A stretch of DNA of 64,000 bases from Bacteroidota bacterium (GCA_947478465.1 CANJWH010000007.1:10794-74793); one strand, 5' to 3'. Positions 33,414-63,745 are shown, counted from the first letter of the stretch. The notes: generated by a model from the sequence alone, not told the origin. Program-made: numbers and translations.

Positions 33414-33478
33414 TTGTCGTGCTAAGCGTAGTCGAAGTATCTATTATTAAGCACCTCAACTACGCTCGGTGTGACAAG
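33414..33478. repeat. REP-like palindromic element (two inverted ~24 bp units, core AGCGTAGTCGA)
   Basis: ttgtcgtgctaagcgtagtcgaag ... cctcaactacgctcggtgtgacaag. Confidence 0.7.
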
Positions 33479-33492
33479 ATTAAACAATATTT

Positions 33493-34587
33493 CTAAATCG
33501 TCATTCCTTCTTTTAATCGTTCAGCATTCTCAGCATTTTGCAGGGCATTCATCATATCCTGAATATCGCCATTCATAAAAGCAGGAAGGCTGTGAATAGT
33601 CATTCCAATTCTATGGTCGGTAACTCGGCTTTGAGGATAATTGTACGTACGGATTTTTGCAGAACGGTCACCTGTTGAAACCATGGTCTTACGCTTTTTA
33701 GCAATAGCATCATTGTGTTTCTGCAATTCCATTTCATAAAGCTTGGTGCGAAGCATAGCCATCGCACGTTCCCTGTTCTTCAACTGACTGCGCTCCACCT
33801 GACATACCACCACAATACCTGTAGGCTTGTGGGTAAGCATCACTTTTGTTTCAACTTTATTTACGTTCTGTCCGCCTGCACCACCCGAACGAGCGGTTTG
33901 CATATCAATATCAGCAGGATTTAACTGCACATCAACTTCTGTTGCTTCCGGCAAAACTGCTACGGTAGCGGCAGAGGTATGAACCCTTCCCTGTGCTTCA
34001 GTGGCAGGTACCCGTTGCACACGGTGAACACCTGATTCGTATTTCATTTGTCCGTAAACACCATCTCCGCTTACAAACATGATTACCTCTTTGTAGCCTC
34101 CGGCAGTTCCATCCGAACAATCAATCAATTCTACTTTCCATCCGCGCTCTTCGCAGTAGCGGGTATACATGCGATACAATTCTCCGGCAAAAAGACTGGC
34201 TTCATCACCCCCTGTTCCTGCACGTATCTCGATAGTGGCATTTTTATCGTCTTCAGGGTCTTTGGGTATCATCATCAGGCGCACTTCTTCTTCTAACTGA
34301 AGCTTGCGCTCTTCCATTTCGGTCAGTTCCAGTTTAGCAAGGTCAAGAAATTCAGGGTCTTTCTCGTTACTTAGAATTTCTTTTGCGTTAGCAATGTTTT
34401 TCAGAAGTAAATCATACTCTTTGTAAGCATTGGCAATAGGTTCCAGGTCGCGGTAGTCTCTGTTCAGCTTCACGTAACGGGTCATATCGCCCACTACATT
34501 CGGGTCGCCCAGCTGAATGCCAATATCTTCCCAACGTTTATAAATATCTCTTAATTTCTCCAGCATTTTTTCTTCAATGAGGCGCAA
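33493..34587 (-). CDS. prfA: peptide chain release factor 1
   Basis: 364 aa; PAT tripeptide ([14 protein letters not shown]) and GGQ motif ([14 protein letters not shown]). Confidence 0.9.
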
Positions 34588-34661
34588 AGATAATTTTTTA
34601 CTGCTTTGTGCGTTAGTGAGGATAGAACAACAACAAATGAAATAATTACCTTTGCCAGCCT

Positions 34662-35519
34662 ATGAATTTTTTCTCTTTCATATTCAGTAAAAATTTTGTG
34701 AAGCATCTTGGCATTGCGCTGGGTGTTTTTATTGCATTGATTTTGGTTATTGTCTTTGCATTGAATGCCTATACAGAGCATGGAGAAACCATTGCCGTCC
34801 CTGATCTTTCAGGCTTAAAAAAAGAAAACCTGGAATCAACTCTAACTCCGCTTGATTTAAAGTATGCTGTTATTGATTCGGTTTACGATAATAAAAGACC
34901 GAAAGGCTCCATTGTTGATCAAACACCTGTACCCGGTTTTCATGTAAAAGCAGGAAGAACGGTTTATGTTACTATTGTTGCCTTGCAGCCCCATAGGGTT
35001 AAAATGCCTAATCTGGTTGACTTAACCTTGCGTCAGGCAACACAGCGGTTGGAAACCTATGGATTGAAGGTTGGCAAAACATCTTATCAGCCCGATATTG
35101 CCAAAAATGTTGTGTTGAAACAATTGTGGAAAGGAAGGAAAATTCACCCTGACAGCCTTATAATTAAAGGTTCTTCTATTGAACTTGTTCTTGGTGACGG
35201 GCTGAATGATTCTGAAATACCGATGCCGTACTTTATTAATCTTACTCCTGAGCAAGCCGAAGAAGCTATTAAATCAGGTGCATTGATACAGGGGGCATTT
35301 ATATATGATACCGATCTAAAAGACACGCTTAAAGCGCGTGTTTATAAACAACGTCCTGCTTACTCTTCTAATTCAGTCATTAAAATAGGCGACCCTGTTG
35401 ATTTGTGGTTTACTGAAAACGAAGATAAAATTGAATACGACCCTTCTCTTCACAACAACCCGATTGATGATGGTGAAGAAATGAAAGAAGGAAGCGATGA
35501 TGATAACTATGATGAGTAA
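34662..35519 (+). CDS. PASTA domain-containing membrane protein
   Basis: 285 aa; N-terminal TM, three PASTA-like repeats (VPDLSGL..., MPNLVDLTLRQA...), acidic tail. Confidence 0.75.
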   Translation: MNFFSFIFSKNFVKHLGIALGVFIALILVIVFALNAYTEHGETIAVPDLSGLKKENLESTLTPLDLKYAVIDSVYDNKRPKGSIVDQTPVPGFHVKAGRTVYVTIVALQPHRVKMPNLVDLTLRQATQRLETYGLKVGKTSYQPDIAKNVVLKQLWKGRKIHPDSLIIKGSSIELVLGDGLNDSEIPMPYFINLTPEQAEEAIKSGALIQGAFIYDTDLKDTLKARVYKQRPAYSSNSVIKIGDPVDLWFTENEDKIEYDPSLHNNPIDDGEEMKEGSDDDNYDE

Positions 35520-37806
35520 AAAAAATCTATTCCTGTTTCTTTTGGTCTTTGCTCTGCCCTTTGCGTTGTTTTCGCAAGAACTTTTGCTTGACCTGGAGGT
35601 AAATCCTGTTTTGTTCAGCAAGCATAATGCTGCTGAAAAAAGCATCATGAACAATCAGGAATATTTTATTCTTGATACCCTCAACCTTCCTTTTATTGAC
35701 GATTTCTCAACTAATAAATTGAAACGCTATTACAATTGGGAATATGCATTACCAACAGATTCAATGGCTATTCGCTGGACATTGAATGGCGATACACTTG
35801 CTACGGTTAATGTTTCTGAGGATACAACATTTCATTATTACTACAGGCTTGATTCAATATTGAACGATACTCTGTTTATTAATATTGCAAATGGACGACT
35901 TGACAGTGCAGTAGCACTTACACCTTATGAAGTAGTTTTTCATAATGGTTACAATCCATTTATTCCCAATGATACAGTGTATTATTGGCCAACTGAAGAG
36001 TCTTATACTTTCTATGATTCTACAGGTTCAGTTTTACTGAATACTTCTGCAACAGCTACTTTTTTAACTCTTGAAAATAGTAATGACACTGTTAAAGTAT
36101 ATCAGCCTGATGCAAACACTTTGTGGATTGATAATTATGCGTTCATAAATTCTACTTATCCCTATTATCCACCTTCGGTTGGTGTAGCAACACTCGATGG
36201 AGTTGACGAAACAGGAATGCCTTATAATTTTGAAACAGGACTGCCTTACGGAGTTGCAGATCATCTTACCTCAAAACCAATTAATCTTGGCGCTTATGTG
36301 CCTGCTGATTCGGTATACCTCAGTTTTTATTATCAGCCACAGGGCAGGGGAAATGCACCGGAACAAAATGATTCGCTTATCCTGCAATTCAGAACATCAA
36401 CTATTGACTGGACAAATATCTGGAATGCTGAAGGAAATGAATTACCGGCCGACAGTATGTTCAAGCAGGTAATGATAGGAGTAAAAGATACCGCATGGTT
36501 TGAGAACAGTTTCCAGTTTCGTTTCCGCAACTATGCAACACTTTCAGGTAATGTTGATCACTGGCATATTGACTATGTACGTTTAAGTAATGCCCGCAAT
36601 TTTGTTGATACAGTTTATGAAGATGTTGCATACGTATATCCCGCTTATTCATTGCTGAACAAATTTCAGGCTATGCCCTGGAGTCATTTTTTGGTTGACC
36701 CTGCTTCATTTATGAATGATACATTATTTCTTTCTTTTCATAATAATTTGAATGCTGTAAAAAATACAGGTTACCGTTGGAAAGTTTTTGATGAATCAAA
36801 CACGGAGATTTTTGACAAAAACGGTGGAAGCAAAAATTACAGTGCAAATGTTTTCTGTCAAAATGCAGGAACGCAGTGTGATAATACTGACCCATTGCCA
36901 ATGTCTCCTGACTTTGCTTTTACCTTTCCCGACAATGGAAACGACAGTGCAGAATTTGAAATTGTAGCTTCTCTTGCCACCAATCCCGATAACATAAAAG
37001 ATAACGACACGCTTCACTATACTCAGGTGTTTCATAATTATTACGCTTACGATGACGGCACCGCAGAAAACGGCTACGGCTTGGAAGTTCAATCACCAAC
37101 CGGACTTTCAATGGCTGCATATCGGTTTAATATGATTAAGCAGGATACGTTGCGTGGTGTGCGTTTTTATTTTAATCCGCAGTTGGAAGATGTTTCGCAA
37201 AAGCTTTTTTCATTGATGGTTTGGACAGGTGATTCGTTACCTGAAACAATGGTTTATCAAAATGATTCTCTTTCTCCTGAATATTCACCTGGTTTAAATT
37301 ACTTCAGAACGTATACTATTAACGATACTGTGTTATTGCTTCCGGCAGGTAATTTCTTTGTAGGCTGGATGCAACTTTCTAATTACAGAATGAATGTGGG
37401 TTTTGACCGTAACCAGACTGCCAATGAAAATATGTTTTACAACATTTTGGGTAGCGGCTGGTTGCAATCGCAATTGCCTGGCGCATGGATGATTCGTCCT
37501 GTGTTTAGCAGCGATACACTTCCGGGTGATGTTTTCTCAATTGAAGAAAATGAAGTGATGACAGATTTCAACGTATTCCCGAATCCGGCATCGGATGAAG
37601 TGTATATTGTGGCAACTAATGAGACAGGAAATAGCAACGATTATTTGCTGAATATTTTTAATAGTACAGGAAGTGTCGTGAAACAGGTTTCGTATTTACC
37701 GCGCTCGGTTAATATTTCTGAGATGGCACCGGGTTTTTATTTTATCACTATTCAAAACAAAGAAACACAGGAACAGAAAACATACAAGCTTGTTATAAGC
37801 AGATAG
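35497..37806 (+). CDS. T9SS C-terminal sorting domain cargo protein (large secreted hypothetical); true start probably the internal Met at 35512
   Basis: 769 aa; signal peptide; C-terminal VFPNPASDEVYIVATN...LLNIFNSTGSVVKQV...GFYFITIQNKETQEQKTYKLVISR. Confidence 0.8.
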   Translation: MMITMMSKKNLFLFLLVFALPFALFSQELLLDLEVNPVLFSKHNAAEKSIMNNQEYFILDTLNLPFIDDFSTNKLKRYYNWEYALPTDSMAIRWTLNGDTLATVNVSEDTTFHYYYRLDSILNDTLFINIANGRLDSAVALTPYEVVFHNGYNPFIPNDTVYYWPTEESYTFYDSTGSVLLNTSATATFLTLENSNDTVKVYQPDANTLWIDNYAFINSTYPYYPPSVGVATLDGVDETGMPYNFETGLPYGVADHLTSKPINLGAYVPADSVYLSFYYQPQGRGNAPEQNDSLILQFRTSTIDWTNIWNAEGNELPADSMFKQVMIGVKDTAWFENSFQFRFRNYATLSGNVDHWHIDYVRLSNARNFVDTVYEDVAYVYPAYSLLNKFQAMPWSHFLVDPASFMNDTLFLSFHNNLNAVKNTGYRWKVFDESNTEIFDKNGGSKNYSANVFCQNAGTQCDNTDPLPMSPDFAFTFPDNGNDSAEFEIVASLATNPDNIKDNDTLHYTQVFHNYYAYDDGTAENGYGLEVQSPTGLSMAAYRFNMIKQDTLRGVRFYFNPQLEDVSQKLFSLMVWTGDSLPETMVYQNDSLSPEYSPGLNYFRTYTINDTVLLLPAGNFFVGWMQLSNYRMNVGFDRNQTANENMFYNILGSGWLQSQLPGAWMIRPVFSSDTLPGDVFSIEENEVMTDFNVFPNPASDEVYIVATNETGNSNDYLLNIFNSTGSVVKQVSYLPRSVNISEMAPGFYFITIQNKETQEQKTYKLVISR

Positions 37807-37814
37807 TTCTTGTT

Positions 37815-37877
37815 GTGTCACATCGAGCGTAGTCGAGGTGCAATTATAATGCTGCCTCGACTACGCTCGGCATGACA
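37815..37877. repeat. REP-like palindromic element (inverted pair of TGTCAYNYCGAGCGTAGTCGAGG)
   Basis: tgtcacatcgagcgtagtcgagg-tgcaattataatgctg-cctcgactacgctcggcatgaca. Confidence 0.8.
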
Positions 37878-37897
37878 ATTAAGCCCATAAATAATAT

Positions 37898-38941
37898 ATG
37901 ATAAATCAAACTGACGATATTGAACTAAACGAAGACGAACAGGATGAACTTTTTGAGCATCACCGTCTGAAAGCCGACAAGGGTCAGGAGCCTTTACGCA
38001 TTGATAAGTTCCTGATGAACCGTCTTGAAAGCACTTCGCGAAACAAAATTCAGAATTCGGCTGAAGCTGGTAATATTCTGGTGAATGATGTTGCCGTAAA
38101 ATCTAATTACAAAGTAAAGCCGGGTGATGTTATCAGCATTGTGCTGGCGCATCCCCCACGCGACCGAACCATTATTCCTGAAAATATTCCGCTGAATATT
38201 GTTTATGAAGATGATGATGTGGTTGTGTTGAACAAACCTGCAGGTCTGGTAGTGCATCCCGGTTACGGAAATTATTCCGGTACCTTGGTAAATGCTTTGG
38301 TATATCATTTCAAAGATCTGCCCAATCAAAATCAGGAAACTCCGCGTCCGGGTTTGGTGCATCGTTTGGACAAAGACACCTCAGGAATTATGATTGTGGC
38401 AAAGAATGAATTTGCTATGACACATCTTGCTGGACAGTTTTTTGACCGCACTACAAAACGAGTTTATAATGCACTTGTTTGGGGTGATTTTGAAGAAGAT
38501 ACAGGAACAATTGAGGGCCACATAGGGCGCAGCCTGAAAGACCGAAAGATAATGGCTGTTTTCCCTGAAGGAGATTATGGTAAACACGCTGTTACACACT
38601 GGAAAGTTCTGGAACGTTTTGGATATGTAACGTTGATTGAATGTAAACTGGAAACAGGTCGTACACACCAGATACGAGCACATTTGCAACACATCAAACA
38701 TCCATTATTTAATGATGTAACCTATGGTGGTGATAGCATTTTGAAAGGAACAACATTTCAGAAATACCGCCAGTTTATTGAAAACTGTTTTACATTGATG
38801 CCACGCCATGCGCTTCATGCAAAGTCATTAGGCTTTGTTCACCCGGTAACAAAAAAGGAATTGTTTTTTGATTCTGAAATTGCTTCTGATATGCAAGCTG
38901 TAATTGACAAGTGGAGGCACTATATTAAGTACGAAAAATGA
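37898..38941 (+). CDS. rluD: RluA-family 23S rRNA pseudouridine synthase (RluD-like) with N-terminal S4 domain
   Basis: 347 aa; catalytic HRLDKDTSGIMIVAKN motif. Confidence 0.85.
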   Translation: MINQTDDIELNEDEQDELFEHHRLKADKGQEPLRIDKFLMNRLESTSRNKIQNSAEAGNILVNDVAVKSNYKVKPGDVISIVLAHPPRDRTIIPENIPLNIVYEDDDVVVLNKPAGLVVHPGYGNYSGTLVNALVYHFKDLPNQNQETPRPGLVHRLDKDTSGIMIVAKNEFAMTHLAGQFFDRTTKRVYNALVWGDFEEDTGTIEGHIGRSLKDRKIMAVFPEGDYGKHAVTHWKVLERFGYVTLIECKLETGRTHQIRAHLQHIKHPLFNDVTYGGDSILKGTTFQKYRQFIENCFTLMPRHALHAKSLGFVHPVTKKELFFDSEIASDMQAVIDKWRHYIKYEK

Positions 38942-38964
38942 TTTATTAAGCACCGTAAATTTAT

Positions 38965-39384
38965 TTGCGAATGCAACTATCCTATCCTCCCAAAATACTC
39001 ATCGCTTGGGGCGAAGCCATCAGCGGCAACAAGCCTATAAAAGAATGGCTGCTGGCAAATGGTTATAAAGAACTCGGTCTTTTTGTTCATGCACTGAATA
39101 ATCAACAGGAGGCGCGTGACTGGCTGATGAAAAATAAATTTCAGCATTTAATGGCTTTGATACGCGGAACAGAAGGTGAAGATAAAGCTGTAAAATGGTT
39201 AGAACAATACAATCTTGAGCCACTTGCAAAAACTGCGCTTGCAGGCGATGGAAATCAAGCTGCGCTGAACTGGTTGATAGAAAATAATCACCGAGAGTTA
39301 GCTGTTATTGCTCAGAAAATAAAGATTGTAAAAGATGATATTGAGCGAAGAAACAATGATGTTCATTCTATAAGTCCGGATTGA
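38965..39384 (+). CDS. small hypothetical protein composed of four ~25 aa repeats (xxWLxxNxxxxLxxxxxAxxG)
   Basis: 139 aa; IKEWLLANGYKELGLF / RDWLMKNKFQHLMALI / VKWLEQYNLEPLAKTA / LNWLIENNHRELAVIA. Confidence 0.5.
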   Translation: MRMQLSYPPKILIAWGEAISGNKPIKEWLLANGYKELGLFVHALNNQQEARDWLMKNKFQHLMALIRGTEGEDKAVKWLEQYNLEPLAKTALAGDGNQAALNWLIENNHRELAVIAQKIKIVKDDIERRNNDVHSISPD

Positions 39385-39429
39385 GTATGGGGGATTTTTA
39401 CAAAACAACGTTTATAGTAATTTTACCCG

Positions 39430-42400
39430 GTGCTGAAATCGCTCCCGATTTTTCTTCTTTTGCTTTTGCCTGTTGCTCTGATTGCACAAACAGGCAGCAA
39501 ACGCACTTTTGAAGTCAGTGCTGCAAAAGACAGCATACGACTTGATACACTTAGTATTATTCCTTCCACATTTAAAGTCGAATTCGCCAACGGCTTTAAG
39601 TTAGATACTACGCTTTATAAGTTAGACTGGGGCAGTGCAACGTTAATTCTCCTCAGAAAAAAATGGCAAGCAAATATTCCTGAAACGCCAGCCATTAAAG
39701 TAGAATACGAAGTGTTTCCCTACAACTTCAGTAAAGAATATTACAACAAAAGCATTGATAGTTTATTAAAGCCTCAAGCTAAAGGTATTCCTAATCCCTT
39801 TGCTGTAACTATTGATAAAAATCCGGCTGACGATATTTTCAGCATGAGCACGTTGAATAAGAATGGTAGTATTTCACGCGGATTAACAGTTGGCAATAAT
39901 CAGGATGTTGCCATCAGTTCAAGTTTAAACTTGCAGTTATCAGGAAACATCAGCGATAACATCGGCATTCTTGCTGCGATTACGGATAATAATATTCCAA
40001 TTCAGCCCGAAGGTAACACCCAGCAGTTGCAAGATTTTGATCAGGTGTACATTCAGATTTTTAGTGACAGTACACGATTGACTGCCGGAGATTTTCAACT
40101 CCGAAAACCGGAAGGATATTTTATGAATTTCTACAAACGCGCACAGGGGTTGAGTGTTACACATGCTTTCGGTTTGGTTAACTCAACAGACCCGAATAAG
40201 AAAATACCCAAAATGAGAGTTACAGGAAGCGGTGCTATATCGCGCGGAAAATTTGCACGAAATATTATTCAGGGAATTGAAAGTAATCAGGGGCCTTACA
40301 AAATGCGCGGAAATGAAAATGAGATTTTCATTATTGTTCTTGCAGGAACAGAGAAGGTTTATATTGACGGGCAATTGATGACTCGCGGACAGGAAAATGA
40401 TTACGTGATTGATTACAATACTTCTGAGGTTACGTTTACTCCCAAACAAATTATTACAAAGGACAGACGTATAATTGTTGAGTTCCAGTATTCAGATAAA
40501 AATTATGCACGTTCGCTTTTTCATTTTGGTGACGAGTTTGAATACAATAAACTGAAACTGCGATTCAACTTTTATTCAGAACAGGACAGCAAGAATCAGC
40601 CGTTGCTGCAAAGTCTTGATGATACGCGTAAACAAATTCTTTCTGATGTAGGAGATAGTCTTCAACTTGCTGTAGTTTCTTCTGCAGATACATCAACGTT
40701 TAACAACGAACAGGTTTTTTATCTTGTAAAAGATACCACCATTGCCTATAAAGGAAACACACAAACATACGACAGTATTTTTGTGTATTCTACAAACCCT
40801 GCAAAAGCTAAATATCAGTTACGCTTTTCGGATGTAGGACAAGGTAATGGAAATTACAGGCAAGTAGCAAGTAGCGCAAATGGAAAGGTTTTTCAATGGT
40901 TTCAACCTGATACTGCCACAGGTGCCTTGCAGGGTAATTACGAACCTGTTGAAATTCTGATTGCTCCGAAGTTGAATCAGATGTTTACGTTTGGAGGTGA
41001 TTATGTCTTTTCTGAAAATGCAAAACTGACATTGGAAGGTGCAATGACTAACACAGACCTTAATCGTTTTTCATCAAGAAACAGTAATGATGATGTGGGT
41101 TATGCAGGTCGCCTTGTTTATGATCATATAATTCCGCTGGGCAAAAAGGATTCACTAACTGACAAGCGCTGGAAAATTATAACAGGACTGAGTTATGAAT
41201 ATACCAACAAGAACTTTCGATATATAGAGCGTTTCAGAAATGTTGAGTTTGACCGCGACTGGAATTTGCGCGACCAGAAAACAGTGGAAGAGCAACACAT
41301 CACTGGCGGCAAATTTGGTTTCAGAAAATATGGAATAGGGGAGATGGTGTATGGAGTGAATTCATTTATCAATGGAAATACGTTTATTGCACTGCAAAAT
41401 ACCTTAACAGCCAATCTTGCTTACCGAGGTTTTAAATTGGATTTTCGTGGAAGTTTAATCAACTCAAAAGGAACAGAAAAGGATTTTACATACAAGAAAT
41501 ACATAGGAACACTTTCAAAAACCATCCGCTGGTTTATGCTTGGAATTAGAGATGAACTGGAAGATAACCGCAGTTTTATTAATGCGGGTGATTCGCTCCT
41601 CAGAACAAGTTTCTACTTCAATGATCGTACATTTTTTGTTCAGAATTCAGATACATCAAGAAATAAATTCAACATCAGTTACAGGCGCAGAATGGAGAAA
41701 CTTCCTTTGAGTAATGACCTTGAACGTGCAACGCTTGGAGAAAATATTTCATTCACAACAGAATTGGGCAAAACACAAAACAGCTTATTTAAAAGCAGTG
41801 TCACTTATCGCAAACTCACAATTTTAGATTCTCTGTTGACTACACAGCGCGCTGACAATAGCCTTATCAGTCGTTTGGAATATACTTTTGGGTTGTTCAA
41901 GAGTGCTGTTACTTCCACTACGTTTTATGAAATTGGTTCAGGGCTGGAGGCAAAGAAATCATTTTCATACATAAGCGTTACCAATGGACAAGGGCCCTAC
42001 ATCTGGATTGATTATAATGATAATGGTATCAAGGAACTAAACGAGTTTGAGATAAATCCTTTTCCCAACACAACCGACACAACTTACCTGCGTGTGTTTG
42101 TGCCCACCAACGACTATGTAAAAACTCATTCAAACGCATTTAATGAAGTATTTAACATTAACCCTTCATTAGTATGGGGAAGCAAAACAGGGCTGCGTAA
42201 ATTTCTTTCTCGGTTTGCCAATCAGTTCATTTATCGCATCGACCGCAAAACGCAACGTGAAGCAATTGAGAAAATCTTTAATCCGTTTGTCAGCGCAGTT
42301 TCCGACACAAGTCTGCTAACACTTAACTCTTCATTCCGGAATACTTTTTTCTTTAACCGCAGCAGTTCTAAATTCGGTGTTGACTATAGCTGGCAGGATA

Positions 42401-44805: not shown

Positions 44806-44814
44806 TGACAGAAC

Positions 44815-54196: not shown

Positions 54197-54217
54197 ATAA
54201 ACATTTATATTTTAATT

Positions 54218-56049: not shown

Positions 56050-56343
56050 TTATATCTTGCACCAGCCTTTCCCCGGATAGTAATTAGAATTTTGAAAAAT
56101 GTTCGTCAACCACTTTGCTATTGCAAAACAGCAATACATCAGAATCAAGACAAAGGGAATGATCAAATTAAACCATTTGCTATGAACCAAAGCGAGAAAT
56201 AATATTACTCAAATCTCATTGGAGTGAATGACATTTTTACATAATGTTAAGAAAATGACTTGCACTGGCTGAGTAATCTGCAATATCAACATTTGTTATA
56301 AATTCATACTTGTTATTTGTCTGCACAACTATCAGATAAATGA
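56050..56343 (-). pseudogene. decayed, inverted fragment of a paralogue of the 54218-55102 GT-A-like gene
   Basis: Minus-strand translation IIYLIVVQTNNKYEFITNVDIADYSASASHFLNIM* aligns with IYLLGDESNNKYPFVTHLNISDYSASAEAF of the 54218 product; downstream frames give YYFSLWFI (cf. FCFLRWFYI) and FQNSNYYPGKGW (cf. FQHLSIANEGKAM) with stops/frameshifts. Confidence 0.5.
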
Positions 56344-56429
56344 TTTACACCGATTAAAATTTCAAGATTGTTTTAGTGTTTATTTTAAGTAAACATTGTC
56401 GCAAAAATACACAATTAACAGAGGGGTTT

Positions 56430-57236: not shown

Positions 57237-58470
57237 TTAATAGTTCTTTATATAGAGTTAAATAGGAGATTGCCTGCTTCTGTTGATTAAAATTTATATA
57301 AGCTTTATTCCTTATTAATTCATTTGAAAATTTATATTTATTACTCAAAAATTCATCAATAGCTTTTGCAAGACCTGATGCTGAATTTTCATCAGCTAAA
57401 ATGCCATTTTCGCCTGTTTTAATGCATTCACCTATGCCACCTGCCCTAAAGCCAATTAAGGGGATTCCACATGATAAAGCCTCAAGCATAGTATTAGGCA
57501 AATTATCTTCAAGTGATGGCAGTATAAATGCATCAGCAGCGTTGTAGGCAGCTACCATCTTTTCATCATCACTGATGTGCCCGGTGTAGTGAACGTTAAG
57601 TGTATCTTTAGAATCTTTTTTTGTTCCGACTGCAAGCAAAAGAATATCTTTACGATTAAGCATTACTAAAGCTTTTTTTAAAAGATTAAATCCTTTGCGT
57701 TCTTCAAATAATTTGTCGCTGATAAAAAGAAGTACTTTCTTATTAGTTGTAATTTTAAAATAGCTTCTGGCTTTGTCCTTCTTTTGGTTTTTAAAAATCT
57801 CTGTATCTAATCCATTAGGTATGTGGTAATGATTGAATTTGCCCAATAGTGAACTTTGTGAAGATTGATCAAGTAGCCATTTTGAGGGTGTAACAACAGT
57901 TAGTTTTACATCAATTAATGATTTGATCTTTATTGAAAGATTCTTTTTTATGTAATCTACCATGTTTGTATTATCTGCCCATACTGGACAGTTATTACAA
58001 TCACTTTTAAAAGTAGTACAATCTTGAGCATAATGGCACCCCCCTGTAAAAGGATTTTGATCATGGAGTGTCCATACTATTTTCTTTGTGTTATCTTTGA
58101 AAAAACTTGGGTAGTCAATAAATTCAGAAACCCAGTGTAGATTAATTATATCAGCTTTGCGGTAGATTTCATTTTGAGTAATATCAAAATCACTTTCTGC
58201 AAATGAGAACATGGTTTTATTCTTTGCAATAGATGAAGTTATTAACTTATTTTTTTCAGACTTGGTTCGATAGAGTTTTAATCTTTTTAAAATTTTGAGA
58301 AAAAGATTTAATACAGGCTTTGCAAATTCGTGGCTATTTGCCAGTTCTGATTTTATATCTAGGTATAAGATGTGTGAATCTATTCCTTGTTTGAGTAATC
58401 CTAAATGCAGCCTTGTAGCTGCGATGCCAGCACCTCCTGAACTTGATGTAGAAATATGAAGAATCTTCAA
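57220..58470 (-). CDS. glycosyltransferase family 4 (GT-B group 1); TTG start
   Basis: 416 aa; MKILHISTSSSGGAGIAA N-terminus; C-terminal PSLEDNLPNTMLEALSCGIPLIGFRAGGIGE. Confidence 0.8.
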   Translation of the reverse strand: MKILHISTSSSGGAGIAATRLHLGLLKQGIDSHILYLDIKSELANSHEFAKPVLNLFLKILKRLKLYRTKSEKNKLITSSIAKNKTMFSFAESDFDITQNEIYRKADIINLHWVSEFIDYPSFFKDNTKKIVWTLHDQNPFTGGCHYAQDCTTFKSDCNNCPVWADNTNMVDYIKKNLSIKIKSLIDVKLTVVTPSKWLLDQSSQSSLLGKFNHYHIPNGLDTEIFKNQKKDKARSYFKITTNKKVLLFISDKLFEERKGFNLLKKALVMLNRKDILLLAVGTKKDSKDTLNVHYTGHISDDEKMVAAYNAADAFILPSLEDNLPNTMLEALSCGIPLIGFRAGGIGECIKTGENGILADENSASGLAKAIDEFLSNKYKFSNELIRNKAYINFNQQKQAISYLTLYKELLNEKYN

Positions 58471-58669
58471 AATTGTAAAAAAATATTATTTTATATATAA
58501 CAAGAAGCAAAATATTTAGTTAGTTCCTTTTCAAATTTTGACTTCTTGCTATCATTTCTTTTAATTGATATTAAGTTTTGAAAAGTTGATTTTTTAGTGG
58601 TAAATTCTTTTAATTCAATAAATTTCTCAATTAACAATGTCCATAATTTATCAACCATCATTATAGATA

Positions 58670-59620
58670 TTATTTTATTTGGTTAGTTAATGCTTTATAG
58701 ATAGGATATATAAGTTGAATGAATTTCTTTTTTATTTCATGTAACCTATAATCAAGGTTGCCCTTAAATCCTACTAATTTCCAAGAATAATAATCATCTG
58801 CCGTATTATTAATTATTATTTTTTCAGGGTGTTTAATAATTCCTATGTCGTAGACAGGAATTTCTGCTAAAAACGAGTTCTTTTCAATAGTATGAGTTGC
58901 ATTTACTCCAAATCCAATGTTACTAATCAGATTTAAATTGGGTATAATACAAATTCCGTTATTTTTCCAAACAGAATACATCCATTGATAATCCCAGGTG
59001 CTGATTTCTCTAATAAAGGTTTTTGATAATTTTTCTAAGTTATAGTCAGCAATTGGCTTTAGATTGAAAATCGATTGATTTTTTCTGAAGCTTTCAAAAT
59101 CGTCCATATTGATAAGATATTTTCCCCATGCTCTTTTCCATGTTGCCCAACCCCATATTCCGGGGTAAACGGAGAAGTAGTAGGATGATGATCCTCGTTT
59201 AATTCCGTCCTGAAAATTTGCACCTCCGATATGCATGATTCTTTCATTATCCCTGTATTTCTCCAAAAGCGTTTGGCAAAAGGTGAAAAAATTTTGATTA
59301 GGTAAGCAATCATCTTCCAGAATTATTCCTTCTTCCACATTATTAAAAAACCAGGTAATTGCTGAACTTACCGCATCCCGGCATCCAAGGTTTTTATCAA
59401 GGAACATGGTTTTTACTTCGCAGTTCCAATCAATCTTTTTTAAAATGCTGCGCGCTTGTTCACATCGTTCTGCTTCGCCTTCTTTGTTTTCTCTTGGTCC
59501 GTCTGCAGCAATAAACAATTGCTTGGGTTCAGCCTTGCGTATTTCTTCAAATACCCTGAAGGTAACATCAGGCCGGTTAAAAATGAGAAAAAGCACAGGG
59601 GTTTTAAGACTACTACTCAC
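58670..59620 (-). CDS. hypothetical GT-A-like glycosyltransferase (HlpA-like nucleotide-sugar transferase fold)
   Basis: 316 aa; FLIFNRPDVTFRVFEEI..LFIAADGPRE...ILEDDCLP DXD-like motif. Confidence 0.4.
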   Translation of the reverse strand: MSSSLKTPVLFLIFNRPDVTFRVFEEIRKAEPKQLFIAADGPRENKEGEAERCEQARSILKKIDWNCEVKTMFLDKNLGCRDAVSSAITWFFNNVEEGIILEDDCLPNQNFFTFCQTLLEKYRDNERIMHIGGANFQDGIKRGSSSYYFSVYPGIWGWATWKRAWGKYLINMDDFESFRKNQSIFNLKPIADYNLEKLSKTFIREISTWDYQWMYSVWKNNGICIIPNLNLISNIGFGVNATHTIEKNSFLAEIPVYDIGIIKHPEKIIINNTADDYYSWKLVGFKGNLDYRLHEIKKKFIQLIYPIYKALTNQIK

Positions 59621-60474
59621 TTTATGGAATATAATTGACTGATTTCTGAATTGCTAAGTTTAATAAAATAATGAGGAAATAAAATTTTCAAAACCACAGG
59701 GTACAAATGCTCCACTTTTAATTTATAGGTAATTTTAAAAATGTTTGCTAAAGTAAATACATTTAGTCTTATAAATTTATAAGCATCTGAGTATTTTTTT
59801 TCGTTAAACTGTTCCAATATGGTTGCAATTTCCTGTTCACGTTTATCTCCTCCTGTTCCTGATTTGTGTGCATCATGTATTCTGTAAACCGATAAGGGAT
59901 TGTTTTCAAAAATAAAGTCAACTCCTGCTTTTTTAGCTCGCAGAAACCACTCCCAGTCAAAAACATAACTGAATTTAGTGTTTAAACGGCCTGTTTTATC
60001 CCATGCCTTACGTGTCCAGAATGTGCTGGGTTGTACTATGTAATCAACTATAGAAAGTTTTTGATTTTTATAGTTTTTTTGAATCTCGCTTGTTACAAAC
60101 AGATTTTCATTCTCCCGGTATCTGACTACATTGCCAAATATTAATTCTGCTTTAGCAGGATTGATTTTATTGCTGATTATTTCTAATGTTTTTTCTGCAA
60201 AATAATCATCTGAGTTCAGCCAGCAAAGAATATCACCCGTAGCTTTTTCAAAACCTTTATTTATGGCCTCTGCCTGTCCATTATCTTTTTCACTTACCCA
60301 ATAAGCAAGCCGGTGCTCATATTTTTTTATAATGTCAACAGAGCCATCTGTGCTTCCTCCGTCAATTATTATATACTCAAGGTTGGGGTAGTTTTGGTTT
60401 AAAACCGACAGAATAGTTTCTTCCAGATACTGAGCCTGATTATAGGATGGTGTAATTACAGAAATCTTCTTCAT
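59617..60474 (-). CDS. glycosyltransferase family 2
   Basis: 285 aa; ISVITPSYNQAQYLEETILSVLNQNYPNLEYIIIDGGSTDGS. Confidence 0.85.
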   Translation of the reverse strand: MKKISVITPSYNQAQYLEETILSVLNQNYPNLEYIIIDGGSTDGSVDIIKKYEHRLAYWVSEKDNGQAEAINKGFEKATGDILCWLNSDDYFAEKTLEIISNKINPAKAELIFGNVVRYRENENLFVTSEIQKNYKNQKLSIVDYIVQPSTFWTRKAWDKTGRLNTKFSYVFDWEWFLRAKKAGVDFIFENNPLSVYRIHDAHKSGTGGDKREQEIATILEQFNEKKYSDAYKFIRLNVFTLANIFKITYKLKVEHLYPVVLKILFPHYFIKLSNSEISQLYSIK

Positions 60475-60539
60475 TCAGTACTATTGAATAAACTCAGAGT
60501 GTAAAGATGAAATTTAGCTTACTCCGTAAAAAAAATAAA

Positions 60540-60588
60540 AAAGCAGCTACGCATTACTGCGTAACTGCTTTTTCGCTCTCAGCTCAAA
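60540..60588 (-). terminator. rho-independent terminator of the FN3-like hypothetical gene (minus strand)
   Basis: minus strand aaaagcagttacgcagtaatgcgtagctgc followed by ttttttatttttt. Confidence 0.7.
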
Positions 60589-60589
60589 C

Positions 60590-61255
60590 CTATCTTGTTC
60601 TTTCCTGAGCTATGTCACTCATTGCTCCGTATCCGAGGGGGCCAAGTGCCCTTACCCGAAACTGATAAATGTGACCACTGACGAGATTTGCCGCCAAAAA
60701 CCGGGATGCCGTAACGGATGCAAGATGTTTCCATTCTCCGTTTCCTGCAGTCGGTGTTGGCATTCCGGGAGTTATTCCCGTATTGCCGTCACCGGTGTAT
60801 CCCAGATCTTTATACTCAAGCTCATAAACTCTGGATGCATTGATACGATTCCAACTCAAATCTATTTCTCCTGCAGAAAGAGTGGCTATTGCCACCAGGT
60901 TCTGCACCTGAGTCATCTCGGTTTTTGGACCGCGCTGCTTCTTTATTTCGAAACCTGAACTTAAAATCATATCAGCATCTCCATTGCTTACGCTTTGAAT
61001 ATGGGCAGCAAGTTGTTTGATCAGTATCCTCAGCTCCTTAGCTCTCAGATTTCTGGCGATTATCAGATTGCGGTCAAAGGCACCTGCTGCTGTTATAGCA
61101 TTGCTCAGGGCGGTAATGGCCGCAAAAAAGGTCACCAGGTCTGGAATGGGGCCGGGGAAGTTTGCATTACCGGTCAGTTTACTATGAATAAGTATTGCTT
61201 TTTGAAGCAGCTTATCATAATTCTGTCCGGAAACTCCAATTTTTACAGTTGCCAT
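60590..61255 (-). CDS. hypothetical protein, alpha-helical N-terminal half plus C-terminal fibronectin type III-like domain; GC-richer than surroundings
   Basis: 221 aa; C-terminal EIDLSWNRINASRVYELEYKD...GHIYQFRVRALGPLGYG FN3 signature. Confidence 0.5.
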   Translation of the reverse strand: MATVKIGVSGQNYDKLLQKAILIHSKLTGNANFPGPIPDLVTFFAAITALSNAITAAGAFDRNLIIARNLRAKELRILIKQLAAHIQSVSNGDADMILSSGFEIKKQRGPKTEMTQVQNLVAIATLSAGEIDLSWNRINASRVYELEYKDLGYTGDGNTGITPGMPTPTAGNGEWKHLASVTASRFLAANLVSGHIYQFRVRALGPLGYGAMSDIAQERTR

Positions 61256-61257
61256 TT

Positions 61258-61383
61258 TTACTGGATATTAGTTGCCGGGTTGCGCCCGGTGTCGCCTTTC
61301 CCTGCCTTGTGCAGGGCTTCGTACGCATCATCCCAATCCTCGTGCCAATTATGTATGTACTTTGTTAAGATTTTGTTAAGCAT
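61258..61383 (-). CDS. small upstream ORF (41 aa; 46 aa from alternative ATG at 61398) ending 2 nt before the start codon of the FN3-like gene; may instead be the frameshifted true N-terminus
   Basis: Translation MLNKILTKYIHNWHEDWDDAYEALHKAGKGDTGRNPATNIQ*; GC-rich segment with two short hairpins (ccggg..cccgg, ccctgc..gcaggg). Confidence 0.3.
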   Translation of the reverse strand: MLNKILTKYIHNWHEDWDDAYEALHKAGKGDTGRNPATNIQ

Positions 61384-61796
61384 TTTACTTAGAAGCATAA
61401 TAGTTGGACAAAGACCTGTTACAGTAAAATAAAATTCTGCAAAATGATTCTAAAAAATGCAGCGTTAATTGTGTTTTTGCTTTTTATGATCATTCATTGC
61501 GATGTTTATAATGCAGAAAGCATTTTTACTGTTGATTATTTCCTGATTACTATCCGTGCAACACTTTTTAAAATTATGAATTAACGTTTTATGAATATGA
61601 AACGTTTTTTTTAAAATATACCAGCACGTTTTATTAGTATAAAAAGTGTTTTTGTAATAATAATTTTGCTTTTGCTGAAACAATGAAGTGGTTTTATAAT
61701 CATAAAATTGCGTTTAATTATCGCTATTGTCCTTTTTTATGATGTAGTATTTTAATGATTGAATAATCATTATGCCTGTAAATTAAATAGATTTGC

Positions 61797-62945
61797 GTGT
61801 TTTCATTCATGCTGATGCACATTCCATTTAATAAAGTCTACCTTACCGGTAAAGAAGAATCCTATGTAGCCAATGCGTTGAAGGGTGATAAATTAACTGG
61901 TGGCGGAAATCATACAGCATGGTGTAAAGAAAACCTGACCAAGCGGTATGGATTCGATAATCTCCACTTAACCACTTCGTGCACTGCTGCTCTTGAAACG
62001 GCTGCTTTACTGCTCAACCTGCAAGCAGGAGATGAAGTCATTATACCTTCTTATACTTTTGTTTCCACAGCCAACGCTTTTGCATTACGCGGAGCAAAAA
62101 TTGTTTTTGCCGATTCGGCTGCTGCTAATCCGAATATAGATGCTGATACTATTGAGCCATTAATTTCAAAACGCACTAAAGCTATTGTGCCTGTCCACTA
62201 CGGTGGTGTTGCCTGCGATATGAATAAAATTTCGGATCTGGCAAAAAAGCATAATTTTATGGTAGTGGAAGATGCGGCACATTCCATAGATGCATATTTC
62301 TATAACAGGCCACTGGGCTCGCTGGGTGATATGGCTGCCTTTTCGTTTCACGAAACCAAAAATATTACCTGCGGTGAGGGCGGAGCATTGTTAATGAATA
62401 ACCGGTTGTTTAATGAGCGTACAGAAATTATTTTGGATAAAGGAACCAATAGAAAAATTTTTGCCGAAGGCAAGACCGACAAATATGAATGGGTGGGATT
62501 AGGCTCGTCTTACCGCATGGCCGAAACATCTGCTGCATTTTTACGGGCGCAACTGGAAGAGCTGGATGGTATTCAGAAAATAAGAATGGAATTATGGAAC
62601 GCTTATTACAGTGCTTTAACTGATGCCGGACTGCAAGAGTTTTTTTCATTACCCGTATTGCCACATTATGCCAAACACAATGCATCTGTTTTTTATGTGG
62701 TTTGCAACTCGCGTGCACTAAGAGATAAGCTGATCAGCGGGCTGGCAGCAAAAGGTATTGCATCGGCATTTCATTATCAGCCTTTGCATAGCAGTCCTTT
62801 TTACAGTGCTATGCAACAAAAACCTGTAGTTTTGCCTAATTCCGAAAAATTCGGTAACTGTTTACTGCGTTTGCCTCTGCATGCCAACCTCAGTAAAGAT
62901 AATATTCATTATGTAACAGAACTGATTATAAAAATCCTGAACTAA
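61797..62945 (+). CDS. DegT/DnrJ/EryC1/StrS-family PLP-dependent sugar aminotransferase
   Basis: 382 aa; SCTAALETAALLL, IIPSYTFVSTANAF, FSFHETKNITCGEGGAL (PLP-lysine region). Confidence 0.85.
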   Translation: MFSFMLMHIPFNKVYLTGKEESYVANALKGDKLTGGGNHTAWCKENLTKRYGFDNLHLTTSCTAALETAALLLNLQAGDEVIIPSYTFVSTANAFALRGAKIVFADSAAANPNIDADTIEPLISKRTKAIVPVHYGGVACDMNKISDLAKKHNFMVVEDAAHSIDAYFYNRPLGSLGDMAAFSFHETKNITCGEGGALLMNNRLFNERTEIILDKGTNRKIFAEGKTDKYEWVGLGSSYRMAETSAAFLRAQLEELDGIQKIRMELWNAYYSALTDAGLQEFFSLPVLPHYAKHNASVFYVVCNSRALRDKLISGLAAKGIASAFHYQPLHSSPFYSAMQQKPVVLPNSEKFGNCLLRLPLHANLSKDNIHYVTELIIKILN

Positions 62946-62963
62946 TTTAATCCGCAATTACCT

Positions 62964-63611
62964 ATGATAAGCCTGTTGAAAGAAGTATTAAGACTGAATA
63001 AACGTTTTGTTTCAGAGCACTATGCTGCCGCAAAACTGAAAGAAAACACGGTGAAAAAAATTGACGCAATCACTGCACAGCGTAATGAAATTAACCTGGA
63101 AATAGGAGCAGGAGAGAAGAAAGGTAAAAACGGCTGGATTACCCTGGATATGTATGCCGGCTGCGATATTCAATGGGATTTGATAAACGGAATTCCATTT
63201 CCTGATAACAGTATCAGCAAAATTTATTCATCTCATCTGTTTGAACATTTAACATTTAAAGAAACTGCCGGACTGATGAAGGAATGTTTAAGAGTTTTGA
63301 AACCCGAAGGTCAGTTTTTGATTTGTGTACCCAACTCGCGATTATATATTGAGGCGTATATGAAAAATGATACTGATTTCAGAAAAGAGCATCCGTTTTT
63401 TCAACCGGCATGGAACAATACCACCAAGATGGATTTGATCAATTACATTGCCTATATGGACGGGCATCATAAATATATGTTTGATGAAGAGAACCTGCTT
63501 GCTGTGCTCGAAAAAAATGGTTTCAGAAATGCGAAATTCAGAAACTTTGACCCGGAAATTGATTTACTGTCAAGAGACCACGAGTCGCTTTATGCTGAAG
63601 GGGTAAAATAG
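62964..63611 (+). CDS. class I SAM-dependent methyltransferase (Methyltransf_11-like)
   Basis: 215 aa; LEIGAGEKKGKNGWITLD motif I, LRVLKPEGQFLICVP. Confidence 0.6.
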   Translation: MISLLKEVLRLNKRFVSEHYAAAKLKENTVKKIDAITAQRNEINLEIGAGEKKGKNGWITLDMYAGCDIQWDLINGIPFPDNSISKIYSSHLFEHLTFKETAGLMKECLRVLKPEGQFLICVPNSRLYIEAYMKNDTDFRKEHPFFQPAWNNTTKMDLINYIAYMDGHHKYMFDEENLLAVLEKNGFRNAKFRNFDPEIDLLSRDHESLYAEGVK

Positions 63612-63629
63612 ATTTTATTGTATGAGGGT

Positions 63630-63745
63630 GATGTCACTTCGAGCCTAGTCGAGAAGTGATTGTATATATTAGTTTGGTTTAGTTTTGTGTTCTCGACTAC
63701 GCTCGAACTGACAGATGGTGTGTCACTTCGAGCGTAGTCGAGAAG
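63630..63745. repeat. cluster of three REP-like units (forward, inverted, forward) TGTCACTTCGAGCGTAGTCGAGAAG
   Basis: gatgtcacttcgagcctagtcgagaag ... ttctcgactacgctcgaactgacag ... gtgtcacttcgagcgtagtcgagaag. Confidence 0.85.

Follow-up and report, generated by a model that had tools for sequence, protein, structure and literature searches.

Hairpin units at three sites

The window analysed here, a 64,000-nucleotide stretch of DNA from a Bacteroidota bacterium (GCA_947478465.1, CANJWH010000007.1:10794-74793), carries seven copies of an oriented unit about 29 nt long. A release-factor gene (33493-34587, minus strand) and a DUF4442 gene (32897-33400, minus strand) are 92 nt apart, and site 1 lies in the space between them; its left arm is a degenerate copy, TTGTCGTGCTAAGCGTAGTCGAAGTATCT, with a broken stem and tag (unit 1, 33415-33443, plus strand), and the right arm reads TGTCA-CAC-CGAGCGTAGTTGAG-GTG (unit 2, 33448-33476, minus strand). 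Site 2 lies between the gene of a T9SS-tail protein (stop at 37806) and an RluD-like gene (start at 37898), with TGTCA-CAT-CGAGCGTAGTCGAG-GTG as its left arm (unit 3, 37816-37844, plus strand) and TGTCA-TGC-CGAGCGTAGTCGAG-GCA as its right arm (unit 4, 37849-37877, minus strand). At site 3 are found TGTCA-CTT-CGAGCCTAGTCGAG-AAG (unit 5, 63632-63660, plus strand), TGTCA-GTT-CGAGCGTAGTCGAG-AAC (unit 6, 63685-63713, minus strand) and TGTCA-CTT-CGAGCGTAGTCGAG-AAG (unit 7, 63721-63749, plus strand), the last of which lies directly downstream of a minus-strand gene for an Ssn-like GIY-YIG nuclease and overlaps its stop codon. The core CGAGCGTAGTCGAG recurs unchanged; TGTCA is kept in six of the seven, and a C stands at position 25 or 26 in five. 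Written as a single-stranded oligonucleotide the unit is TGTCACTTCGAGCGTAGTCGAGAAG, and the class to which the window's copies belong was labelled CGAGCGNAGYCGAG-type.

The preliminary description had counted seven units at these three sites, arranged as inverted pairs or, at site 3, as forward-inverted-forward, and both the count and the arrangement were borne out by the sequence and by R1, a covariance model trained on units from other genomes. With filters off, R1 returned exactly seven matches and nothing else in the 64 kb, scoring 21 (E = 3.7e-3), 34.2 (E = 1.2e-6), 29.3, 40.3, 29.7, 39.3 and 41.7 bits for units 1 to 7; E-values ran from 1.3e-8 to 3.7e-3, and the next best match had E = 1. 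The 15-mer core, with up to three mismatches allowed, was matched six times against 0.24 expected, and none of 100 shuffles reached six. An element overlapping the trmH stop (24165-24225), proposed earlier as a divergent relative, gave no R1 match even at E <= 10; it has only the 8-mer CGTAGTCG in common with the units, has neither the TGTCA tag nor the covarying stem, and was rejected as a family member in favour of a separate hairpin.

The general picture of REP- or REPIN-like extragenic hairpin units, placed at gene 3' ends in inverted pairs, is supported. The claim that every copy is placed after one gene's stop codon and before the following gene is true of sites 1 and 2 and fails at site 3, where the nuclease gene had been overlooked. 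The extragenic bias extends to the units of other genomes, for only 20 of 112 fall inside ORFs, in sequence that is 83% coding (p ~1e-50), and 92 fall outside. Among 80 intergenic units, the flanking genes are oriented ++ in 25 cases, -- in 22, +- in 27 and -+ in 6, so that only 6 of 80 lie between divergent genes. Single units and tandem units are common.

A covarying unit structure

Each unit forms a small hairpin of its own, which can be written T-GTCA-xyz-C-GA-G-CGTAGT-C-GA-G-z'y'x'. It consists of an unpaired 5' tag, (T/C)GTCA, an outer stem of 4-5 bp whose sequence is free but complementary, an invariant tandem G.A step (CGAG opposite CGAG), and a GNA-type mini-loop, CGTAGT, closed by a G-C pair. 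Nine positions are stacked in the stem if the two G.A pairs are included, and the loop comprises GNA plus one base. This structure is demonstrated by covariation, since the outer stem shows strict Watson-Crick covariation across more than 12 phyla. Other genomes supplied 145 distinct units, and in 136, 139 and 144 of these the bases at positions 5-7 form Watson-Crick pairs with those at 22-24, using more than 16 different kinds of complementary triplet. In the alignment termed A2, pairing extends to 91.6% of cells, compared with 73.1% after shuffling, and 226 double-sided changes were counted against 52.5 in shuffles, a figure reached by 0 of 500; when the partners are slid, pairing falls to 27-47%. 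The inner pairs covary as well, at 9-22 (CG to UA) and at 12-19 (GC to CG), while G10 and A11 never vary, and the bases opposite them, G20 and A21, are conserved at 90% or more. The tag bases G2, T3, C4 and A5 are each present in at least 90% of 148 units, and the base at position 0 is most often T (110 of 145 units), then C (27), with A and G in 4 each. An A4-T25 pair occurs in 89 of 145 units but in few of the window's copies, position 26 is C in 95 of 145, and the consensus of the tail is TCT.

In the window pairs the xyz triplets are unlike between the two arms, and each arm retains its own complement, which argues for selection on the unit and not on the long hairpin alone. The inverted pairs form long hairpins of -23.9 and -29 kcal/mol with z about -8 (for the site-2 pair as single-stranded DNA, -23.9 kcal/mol and z -8.4). 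Single units give -1.5 to -5.1 kcal/mol by nearest-neighbour DNA folding, with z non-significant for most, in an energy model that gives no credit to sheared G.A pairs or GNA loops.

These very stable long hairpins invite the reading that the units are host RNA elements, either 3'-end stabilisers or factor-independent terminators, with the link to a GIY-YIG gene being secondary. E. coli REPs do act as 3'-end stabilisers or terminators, all copies immediately follow the stop codons of genes that are co-directional or convergent, and many repeats of the related CGTC type were suggested to be transcribed (Di Nocera et al., BMC Genomics 2013; PMC3733652). What the covariation maintains, however, is the small hairpin within each arm, and this even where pairing between the arms suffers. 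The mismatch-type cells of the outer stem comprise 3 G.T and 6 A.C in 435, and so few G.U-type pairs would be uncommon in an RNA helix under selection and agree with pairing in DNA. Units are also found in either orientation, comparison with Rfam gave no match, and Neisseria SsnA fails to bind RNA (Chenal et al., Nat Commun 2025; PMC11893778). The terminator role in the preliminary description fares no better in its classical form, as no T/U run follows the hairpins (ATTAAGCCC; on the minus strand, ACAAATAAG) and no terminator-like site was called at 33415-33476 or 37816-37877. An RNA element is thus improbable as the primary explanation, although the hairpins may have a secondary effect on mRNA 3' ends.

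A GIY-YIG gene between inverted units

The gene at the end of the window (63748-64000, minus strand) is represented by its stop codon and C-terminal 83 codons and runs off the window; same-species contigs show that it extends to ~64060. Pfam GIY-YIG (PF01541), the protein's sole domain, is matched with E = 8.4e-10 by the part in the window and with E = 2.1e-16 by the whole gene product, and an HMM of Ssn-like homologues has this gene as its single match in the window (E = 6e-33). The protein is 47% identical to the unit-flanked GIY-YIG protein of L044 and 98% identical to an intact homologue, P0001. Beyond the window end, an in-frame TAG takes the place of the tyrosine of the YIG motif, and it was found in three contigs from three samples that are identical across 600 compared bases. 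The codon lost is that of a catalytic tyrosine, and the ssn-like gene, of which no second copy was observed in the source organism, is probably a pseudogene. A fourth unit, the partner of unit 7, lies in the same-species contigs L205-L207 at the window-equivalent position 64087-64115 (minus strand), so that this unit and unit 7 bracket the gene. A unit-ssn-unit cassette spans 63632 to ~64115, with unit 5 as its distal unit and its gene apparently inactivated by a nonsense codon.

The cassette with the intact gene (P0001) occupies a second locus, between surA-like and moxR genes, and is 96-97% identical, with homology that begins at the tag of the first unit and stops at the last shared unit; units 5 and 6 both fall within this block. 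The gap between the surA-like and moxR genes is 539 nt long where filled and 6-7 nt in relatives whose MoxR is 96-97% identical, an insertion of ~540 bp that contains the GIY-YIG gene and units only; comparison of the filled and empty sites revealed no evident target-site duplication. A gene-less pair shows the same kind of polymorphism: the site-2 pair is present in L214 (RluD 90% identical) and absent from two 77% relatives, L215 and L216, in which the flanking genes are 1 nt apart. Insertion and absence are therefore seen both for the cassette and for a pair, and the L214 orthologue of unit 4 carries a compensatory change, TGC/GCA to TGT/ACA.

The dispersal of the family, and its tie to the nuclease gene, are equally supported by other genomes, where the association was observed from both directions. 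A search by DNA pattern found GIY-YIG genes directly adjoining units in L007, L034, L044 and L101. Starting instead from the protein, a [CT]GTCA-tagged hairpin lies within 300 nt at 70 of 80 metagenome loci, and 46 of the 80 are flanked on both sides, with a plus unit upstream and a minus unit downstream. Of 46 core-type units, 38 are no more than 300 nt from the gene, in a zone that makes up ~13% of the sequence. For some GIY-YIG homologues, 49-64% identical, the flanking repeats are the canonical Neisseria-type NTS, TGTCATTCCCGCGAAAGCGGGAATCCA. The associated protein is a single-domain GIY-YIG nuclease of ~100 aa; UPF0213 (1ZG2) matches it weakly (E = 1e-3). Within 300 nt of units lie 143 ORFs, and the families with more than one representative among them are housekeeping ones and GIY-YIG.

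That gene association bears directly on the earlier proposal of a RAYT partner, in which REP/BIME hairpins are moved by an IS200/IS605-like Y1 tyrosine transposase (tnpA-REP) encoded elsewhere. The outline is the same, with small hairpin units in inverted pairs lying outside genes at their 3' ends, and the unit even contains the tetranucleotide GTAG. Here, however, GTAG is in the loop rather than at an unpaired 5' end, and the conserved unpaired tag is (T/C)GTCA. The unit-flanked gene is GIY-YIG, in the source organism as at 46-70 of the 80 other loci, and Y1_Tnp is missing from the top 25 listed of 155 neighbour families, which take in all those adjoining two or more units. No IS200-like ORF was found in the window, albeit at low sensitivity, and the 2013 survey saw no tyrosine transposase gene flanked by CGTC-type repeats (PMC3733652). 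The RAYT reading is very unlikely and largely refuted. A role as terminal inverted repeats of a DDE-type insertion sequence, with the GIY-YIG gene as passenger, is just as unlikely, for although the pairs have inverted ends with the tag outward and vary in presence among related genomes, the cassette neither contains nor adjoins a transposase gene, the surA-like/moxR site shows no evident target-site duplication, and the frequent single and tandem units fit poorly with an element bounded by such repeats.

Relation to NTS/SRM-Ssn and CGTC-tagged repeats

The preliminary description held that no such family was characterised for this lineage, which proved incorrect in that the family has already been described and is not lineage-specific. 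It was reported in Bacteroidetes, among other phyla, as the superfamily of CGTC/TGTC-tagged REPs (PMC3733652), and it fits the NTS/SRM-Ssn system of Neisseria and others (PMC11893778). With the latter the units share an oriented hairpin repeat of ~28 nt with an unpaired 5' (C/T)GTCA tag, a T(T)CC-like stem start and a TC(Y) tail (NTS, CGTCATTCCCGCGMAVGCGGGAATCYRG, compared with TGTCATCCCGAGCGTAGTCGAGGGATCTC), inverted units around a single-domain GIY-YIG gene for 94-108 aa, and occurrence in many phyla with dispersed gene-less copies. In the GIY-YIG alignment, whose first sequence has 94 aa, Y6, Y17 and E64 are invariant, and they coincide with the catalytic residues reported for a protein of 94 aa in the Ssn clade (CDD cd10448, GIY-YIG_unchar_3; PMC11893778). 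The differences lie in the unit interior, CGAG-CGTAGT-CGAG with its tandem G.A and GNA-type mini-loop where NTS has a perfect 8-bp stem, and in the host, here an uncultured Bacteroidota whose local gene copy carries a nonsense codon. The published SRM pattern, HGTCWYN(0-2)YYVSBRHN(0-5)WNVSBRGN(0-2)RNCYNB, was devised by the authors for searching, on the basis of 29 genomes, and does not define the system biologically; it matches two NTS sequences used as a control, nothing in the window and none of the seven units taken singly, and of 80 related GIY-YIG loci only 16 have a match to it no more than 300 nt from the gene. Since the units fail this pattern, membership rests on the architecture and the gene association.

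The CGTC-tagged REPs, which comprise four published families, CGTC-1 to CGTC-4, and were compared here at the level of the superfamily, share a terminal CGTC/TGTC tag outside the pairing, a short stem-loop with an unpaired tail of ~3 nt, mostly inverted dimers downstream of ORFs with unidirectional or convergent neighbours, a range that includes Bacteroidetes, Spirochaetes, Proteobacteria and other phyla, and no association with a transposase. They were described with stems of 8-9 bp that open with two A-T pairs, loops of 4-5 nt and a tail of CCA (PMC3733652), whereas the stem of the window units is broken by G.A pairs, their tail is TCT/C, and the first A-T pair is often missing.

Two other systems are comparable in outline. 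REP/REPIN-RAYT of E. coli and Pseudomonas likewise has a low- or single-copy nuclease gene between inverted hairpin units, many dispersed extragenic gene-less pairs, and recognition of the folded single strand, but its enzyme is an HUH/Y1 transposase with a covalent intermediate and not a GIY-YIG hydrolase, its tag is GTAG and not TGTC/CGTC, and the window element is not a member of that family. GIY-YIG homing endonucleases (phage T4 Seg, I-TevI) are also small mobile selfish cassettes inserted between genes, but they possess a DNA-binding domain besides the nuclease and cleave double-stranded DNA at a single cognate site, whereas the protein here is a bare catalytic domain whose sites, by analogy, would be multi-copy hairpins in single-stranded DNA.

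The best explanation, with a probability of about 0.8 for the reading as a whole, is that the units are Ssn-related motifs, equivalent to CGTC/TGTC-tagged REPs, which fold on single-stranded DNA and are the cognate sites of the small GIY-YIG Ssn nuclease. The Ssn-family nuclease gene sits between two inverted units as a unit-ssn-unit cassette, and the pairs at 33415-33476 and 37816-37877 would be gene-less, non-autonomous, REPIN-like derivatives that entered narrow spaces between genes, at gene 3' ends. By itself, a GIY-YIG hydrolase is unable to join DNA. Neisseria SsnA binds and cuts NTS as single-stranded DNA only, neither double-stranded DNA nor RNA, with the cytosine right after the palindrome critical for binding, and its homologues cut their own flanking repeats (PMC11893778). 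From this analogy we infer that the Ssn-like nuclease cleaves the units as single-stranded DNA: it would bind folded units solely in single-stranded DNA, as at replication forks or in incoming transforming or conjugating DNA, and would introduce its nick a few bases to the 5' side of the tag. The stems at sites 1 and 2 are CAC, CAT and TGC, as against CTT and GTT in the cassette units, and a changed stem sequence abolishes the activity of Neisseria SsnA (PMC11893778), so the pairs at these two sites may not be substrates of the local ssn-like gene.

Hairpin units in the window

The repeat sequences reported at three sites in the preliminary description are present there, and the unit can be written as [CT]GTCA-N3-YGAGCGNAGYCGAR-N3. 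Across the whole window its 15-base core, TCGAGCGTAGTCGAG, occurs 6 times with at most 3 mismatches against an expectation of 0.24, a count reached in 0 of 100 shuffles, and a repeat finder recovered the same families and arm pairs (D10, D14, I17 and I22). A covariance model of the unit (R1), trained only on units of other genomes, gives exactly seven matches in an unfiltered search of the whole window, with E values from 1.3e-8 to 3.7e-3; the next match has E = 1. Two of the seven make up site 1 (33415-33443, plus strand; 33448-33476, minus) and two site 2 (37816-37844, plus; 37849-37877, minus), while site 3 holds three (63632-63660, plus; 63685-63713, minus; 63721-63749, plus). Site 1 takes up most of a 92-nt interval that separates two minus-strand genes, one for a release factor and one for a DUF4442 protein; site 2 lies in a 91-nt gap between two plus-strand genes, the first encoding a T9SS-tail protein and the second an RluD-like one. 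A terminator scan gave no T-run or terminator-like call after either of these two sites.

The divergent relative proposed over the stop of the trmH-like gene (24165-24225) has no R1 match and shares only CGTAGTCG with the unit. The element there (24160-24225) is a separate hairpin over the stop of a SpoU/TrmH-like gene, between convergent genes, with three GTAGTCG repeats in its 5' arm and a DNA fold of -11.6 kcal/mol (z -2.9). At the gathering threshold Rfam has 0 matches in the whole window, permissive Rfam scans of site 3 and of L101, one of the stretches compared, yielded nothing but microRNA-like chance matches that scored far under the threshold, and the unit class is covered by no Rfam family. 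The window has a G+C content of ~39% and carries type-IX-secretion sorting domains and other typical Bacteroidota genes; no tRNA or tmRNA genes were found in it, and proteins identical to its own are encoded both by metagenome contigs and by the MAG GCA_947471795.1.

The window also holds repeats of other kinds. Adjoining site 1 is a 23S_rRNA_IVP-family gene (PF05635; 32502-32867, minus strand) set between 38-nt imperfect inverted repeats (32444-32481 and 32870-32907, 79% complementary), a second small gene between inverted repeats. The ~1.1 kb non-coding stretch from a T9SS-tail gene (25789-27753, minus) to a TonB-like gene (28876-29703, plus) contains two adjoining tandem arrays at 28157-28657, the first of GAGTTACGTTTGAAGTTTTG x 9.6 (93% matches) and the second of a 61-nt unit x 4.7 (87% matches), with no ORF of at least 60 aa over them. 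Directly after the ORF at 281-3316 comes a 36-nt inverted repeat (3317-3393, 83% complementary, 5-nt loop), and ~400 nt beyond it the 21-nt unit TTTCTCTACCCAACGGTCTTG is repeated in tandem about 6 times (3804-3936). Two neighbouring T9SS-tail genes are surrounded by direct repeats of 182 nt (24213-24394 and 25780-25961, 91%) and 106 nt (25662-25767 and 27783-27888, 97%), the latter including the hairpin AAAAACACCCCACTTCTCAGCAGGGTGTTTTT; these look as if gene ends, together with their terminator-like downstream regions, had been duplicated locally.

Fold of the unit across genomes

The pattern GTCANNNCGAGCGTAGTCGAG was scanned over one genome per species, a collection of 596 billion bases on both strands, and was found in at least 119 stretches; the calculated chance expectation for its 18 specified bases is ~17 matches. 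Among the matches listed are Acidobacteriota, Verrucomicrobiota, Clostridia, Bacteroidota, Alphaproteobacteria, Chloroflexota, Spirochaetota, two candidate-phyla-radiation groups and others. The three free bases of the pattern are complementary to the three bases after the core in 136, 139 and 144 of 145 distinct units, through more than 16 different triplet pairs and with wobble pairs nearly nil. When variant cores were included in a second alignment, 91.6% of cells were paired, compared with 73.1% in shuffles, and 226 double-sided changes were counted against 52.5, a number reached in 0 of 500 shuffles; sliding the partners out of register abolished the pairing signal. Compensatory changes are found at the inner pairs C9-G22 and G12-C19 as well; in this alignment G10 and A11 never vary, and the bases opposite them, G20 and A21, hardly do (conserved in at least 90%).

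From this pairing and these compensatory changes it follows that the unit folds as T-GTCA-[xyz-C]-GA-[G-C]-GNA-[G]-(T)-[C]-GA-[G-z'y'x']-TCT, with a tandem G.A step and a C-GNA-G mini-loop, both of which are unusually stable in DNA. Nearest-neighbour DNA folding predicts weak and uninformative energies for single units, since the model credits neither the G.A step nor the GNA mini-loop. The arms of the window pairs have different stems (CAT/GTG with TGC/GCA; CTT/AAG with GTT/AAC), and because each arm retains its own complement despite this, the unit itself is the object of selection. That the pairing is strictly Watson-Crick and shows no strand asymmetry suggests that DNA, not RNA, is the molecule that folds. 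The units are placed at gene 3' ends, as the preliminary description noted, and they may have a side effect on mRNA 3' ends. Only 20 of 112 units lie inside ORFs, compared with 83% coding sequence, so that the class is strongly extragenic, and with 6 of 80 units between divergent genes, divergent promoter regions are avoided.

A GIY-YIG nuclease gene between units

Site 3 stands at the window's edge, and the same-species contigs L205-L207, identical to the window over its last 437 bases, carry a fourth unit 338 nt past the last one in the window. Between these two units lies a minus-strand gene, MTLFKLLYVYILKCSDNTY*TGVTNNIETRLRYHNEG...AIAREKQIKDWSMKKKEAIIEQNWEKLKEF...DKK, which makes site 3 the downstream half of a cassette, unit-ssn-unit, that extends from 63632 to ~64115, ssn being the gene of a small GIY-YIG nuclease. 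The part of the gene inside the window (63748-63999) had gone unnoticed, and the annotation is corrected here: it matches Pfam GIY-YIG with E 8.4e-10 and an HMM of homologues with E 6e-33, as the sole match of that HMM in the window. The N-terminal motifs lie past the window's end and are interrupted by a stop: each of the three contigs has TAG where the YIG motif should have its tyrosine. As TAG is an ordinary stop in the source genome (e.g., in the ORF ending at 37806), this copy of ssn is probably dead, to judge from its sequence.

The same association is seen elsewhere. Four loci derived from the pattern have a GIY-YIG gene of ~95-108 aa whose start or end is no more than some tens of bases from a unit and which has inverted units on both sides, and PF01541 is the only Pfam domain in these proteins. 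Apart from GIY-YIG, the ORFs adjoining units found through DNA alone are unrelated housekeeping genes, and GIY-YIG is the joint most frequent family among them. A search from the protein side yielded 80 metagenome loci encoding homologues, with a core-type unit at most 300 nt from the gene in 20, usually a plus unit 24-54 nt before the start and a minus unit 17-85 nt after the stop. Any [CT]GTCA-tagged hairpin within that distance is found in 70 of the 80, and 46 have tagged hairpins on both sides, plus upstream and minus downstream. The hairpin interiors at these loci fall into several classes, including NTS-type, CTGAACTTG-type, tandem-G.A-type and TTGCGAG-type, one being the exact Neisseria-type TGTCATTCCCGCGAAAGCGGGAATCCA. 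A RAYT partner, an IS200/IS605-like Y1 transposase, had been proposed for the repeats; the gene they flank encodes a GIY-YIG protein, and no Y1 transposase is among the families listed beside units.

Units are also arranged in other ways. Dense arrays are found in the compared stretches L072 (4815-6562), L044 (5700-5845 and 6238-6320), L058 (6157-6266) and L070 (56-705). An Acidobacteriota MAG has an array of units with 30-nt loop insertions, about one per 160 nt, a Spirochaetes MAG has head-to-tail tandem units at 27-nt spacing next to a GIY-YIG gene, and in a Clostridia MAG tandem units are spaced at 40 nt; a Spirosomataceae genome contains units in a 187-nt composite repeat. In L028 (1230-1350) the flanks of a unit pair form a larger palindrome around it. 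In L101 (2000-2440) arm complementarity runs past the units (TCTCACGTAA and TTACGTGAGA) around the GIY-YIG gene, which, from the sequence, looks as if it sits in the loop of a former long hairpin.

Two published systems bear on these repeats. In CGTC-tagged REPs, as defined by Di Nocera et al. 2013 (PMC3733652), a tag that often reads TGTC precedes a short stem-loop with a short tail; most of these REPs form inverted dimers, they lie 3' of ORFs and they are known from Proteobacteria, Chlorobi, Bacteroidetes, Spirochaetes and Thermotogae, and the authors emphasise the lack of an associated transposase. In Neisseria, Chenal et al. 2025 described the repeat NTS, CGTCATTCCCGCGMAVGCGGGAATCYRG, which together with related motifs (SRM) brackets ssnA, a 94-aa single-domain GIY-YIG gene of family cd10448 (PMC11893778). 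SsnA binds and cuts its repeat, a few bases upstream, only as single-stranded DNA and is inactive on duplex DNA and RNA, its homologues cleave their own repeats, and the system modulates natural transformation (PMC11893778). The residues mutated in SsnA correspond to Y6, Y17 and E64, which are invariant in our GIY-YIG alignment; a search of solved structures gave only a distant UPF0213 relative, 1ZG2, with a weak match (E 1e-3).

The window units share with SRM and NTS the tag, the style of the outer stem, the tail and the flanking arrangement, but the published degenerate search pattern, which does match NTS, matches 0 of the 7, and only 16 of the 80 related GIY-YIG loci have a match to it 300 nt or less from the gene. 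Judged by architecture and gene association, the tandem-G.A class is an SRM member outside the published operational motif; its core string was not found in the searchable literature. The REP-like reading of the window thus holds in outline, the repeats being real, whereas the RAYT link, the trmH relative and the idea of an uncharacterised family find no support: the repeats belong to the SRM/CGTC-REP-Ssn system already described, not to a RAYT system. This joins two published descriptions, one of CGTC-tagged REPs that lack a transposase (2013) and one of Ssn nucleases and the repeats beside their genes (2025), and extends both by a hairpin class with a tandem G.A core, conserved in more than 12 phyla and invisible to the published search pattern.

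Gain, loss and possible mobility

The conceptual translation of the window gene shares 98% identity with an intact database protein, P0001, whose gene has a SurA-like rotamase gene on one side and moxR on the other and is flanked by the same units as the window cassette. The two loci are 96-97% identical over a block that opens with the TGTCA tag of the upstream unit and closes with the last common unit; the flanks beyond it are unrelated. The rotamase-moxR gap is 539 nt when filled and 6-7 nt in contigs whose MoxR is 96-97% identical, and comparison of the filled and empty sites gave no convincing target-site duplication. The pair at site 2 is at the same place in a relative with a 90% identical RluD, where a stem has undergone a compensatory change (TGC/GCA to TGT/ACA). 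In two relatives with RluD 77% identical, the genes flanking site 2 are 1 nt apart, and R1 has no match in 15-17 kb of either. The same-species contigs L120-L124 are 100% identical to the window at sites 1 and 2 and are therefore uninformative on polymorphism. Since filled and empty loci exist for both the cassette and the site-2 pair, these elements are gained or lost over short evolutionary times.

The movement of Ssn cassettes is put forward in the Ssn paper only as a hypothesis (PMC11893778). The evidence here consists of one cassette in two contexts with edges at units, one clean pair of filled and empty loci, and one gene-less insertion, a pair that two related species carry and others lack. 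We suggest that an Ssn-like enzyme of the source lineage would cut units of the window class, that gene-less inverted pairs would be non-autonomous derivatives of the cassette, and that spread would start from nicks made in folded single strands and be completed by host recombination or repair, as a GIY-YIG hydrolase by itself cannot join DNA. In its fullest form, this reading makes the unit-ssn-unit cassette a mobile element, active and autonomous, that relies on a bare GIY-YIG ssDNA nuclease and is of a type still to be demonstrated in bacteria, with gene-less inverted pairs as non-autonomous derivatives or landing sites; the tandem-G.A class (CGAG-CGNAGY-CGAG) would be a major SRM class that spans phyla and escapes the published pattern. 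We hold this reading tentatively, with a probability of roughly one in three. Nick-induced, recombination-dependent copying between units would be a possible route for such an element.

What is new here is the hairpin class missed by the published motif, the probably inactivated ssn cassette and the filled and empty sites, which offer concrete material for mobility tests of cassettes and pairs. The new pairings of Ssn and repeat are candidate site-specific ssDNA-cutting tools, and if the tandem-G.A class is indeed a major one across phyla, the real extent of Ssn systems would have been substantially underestimated.
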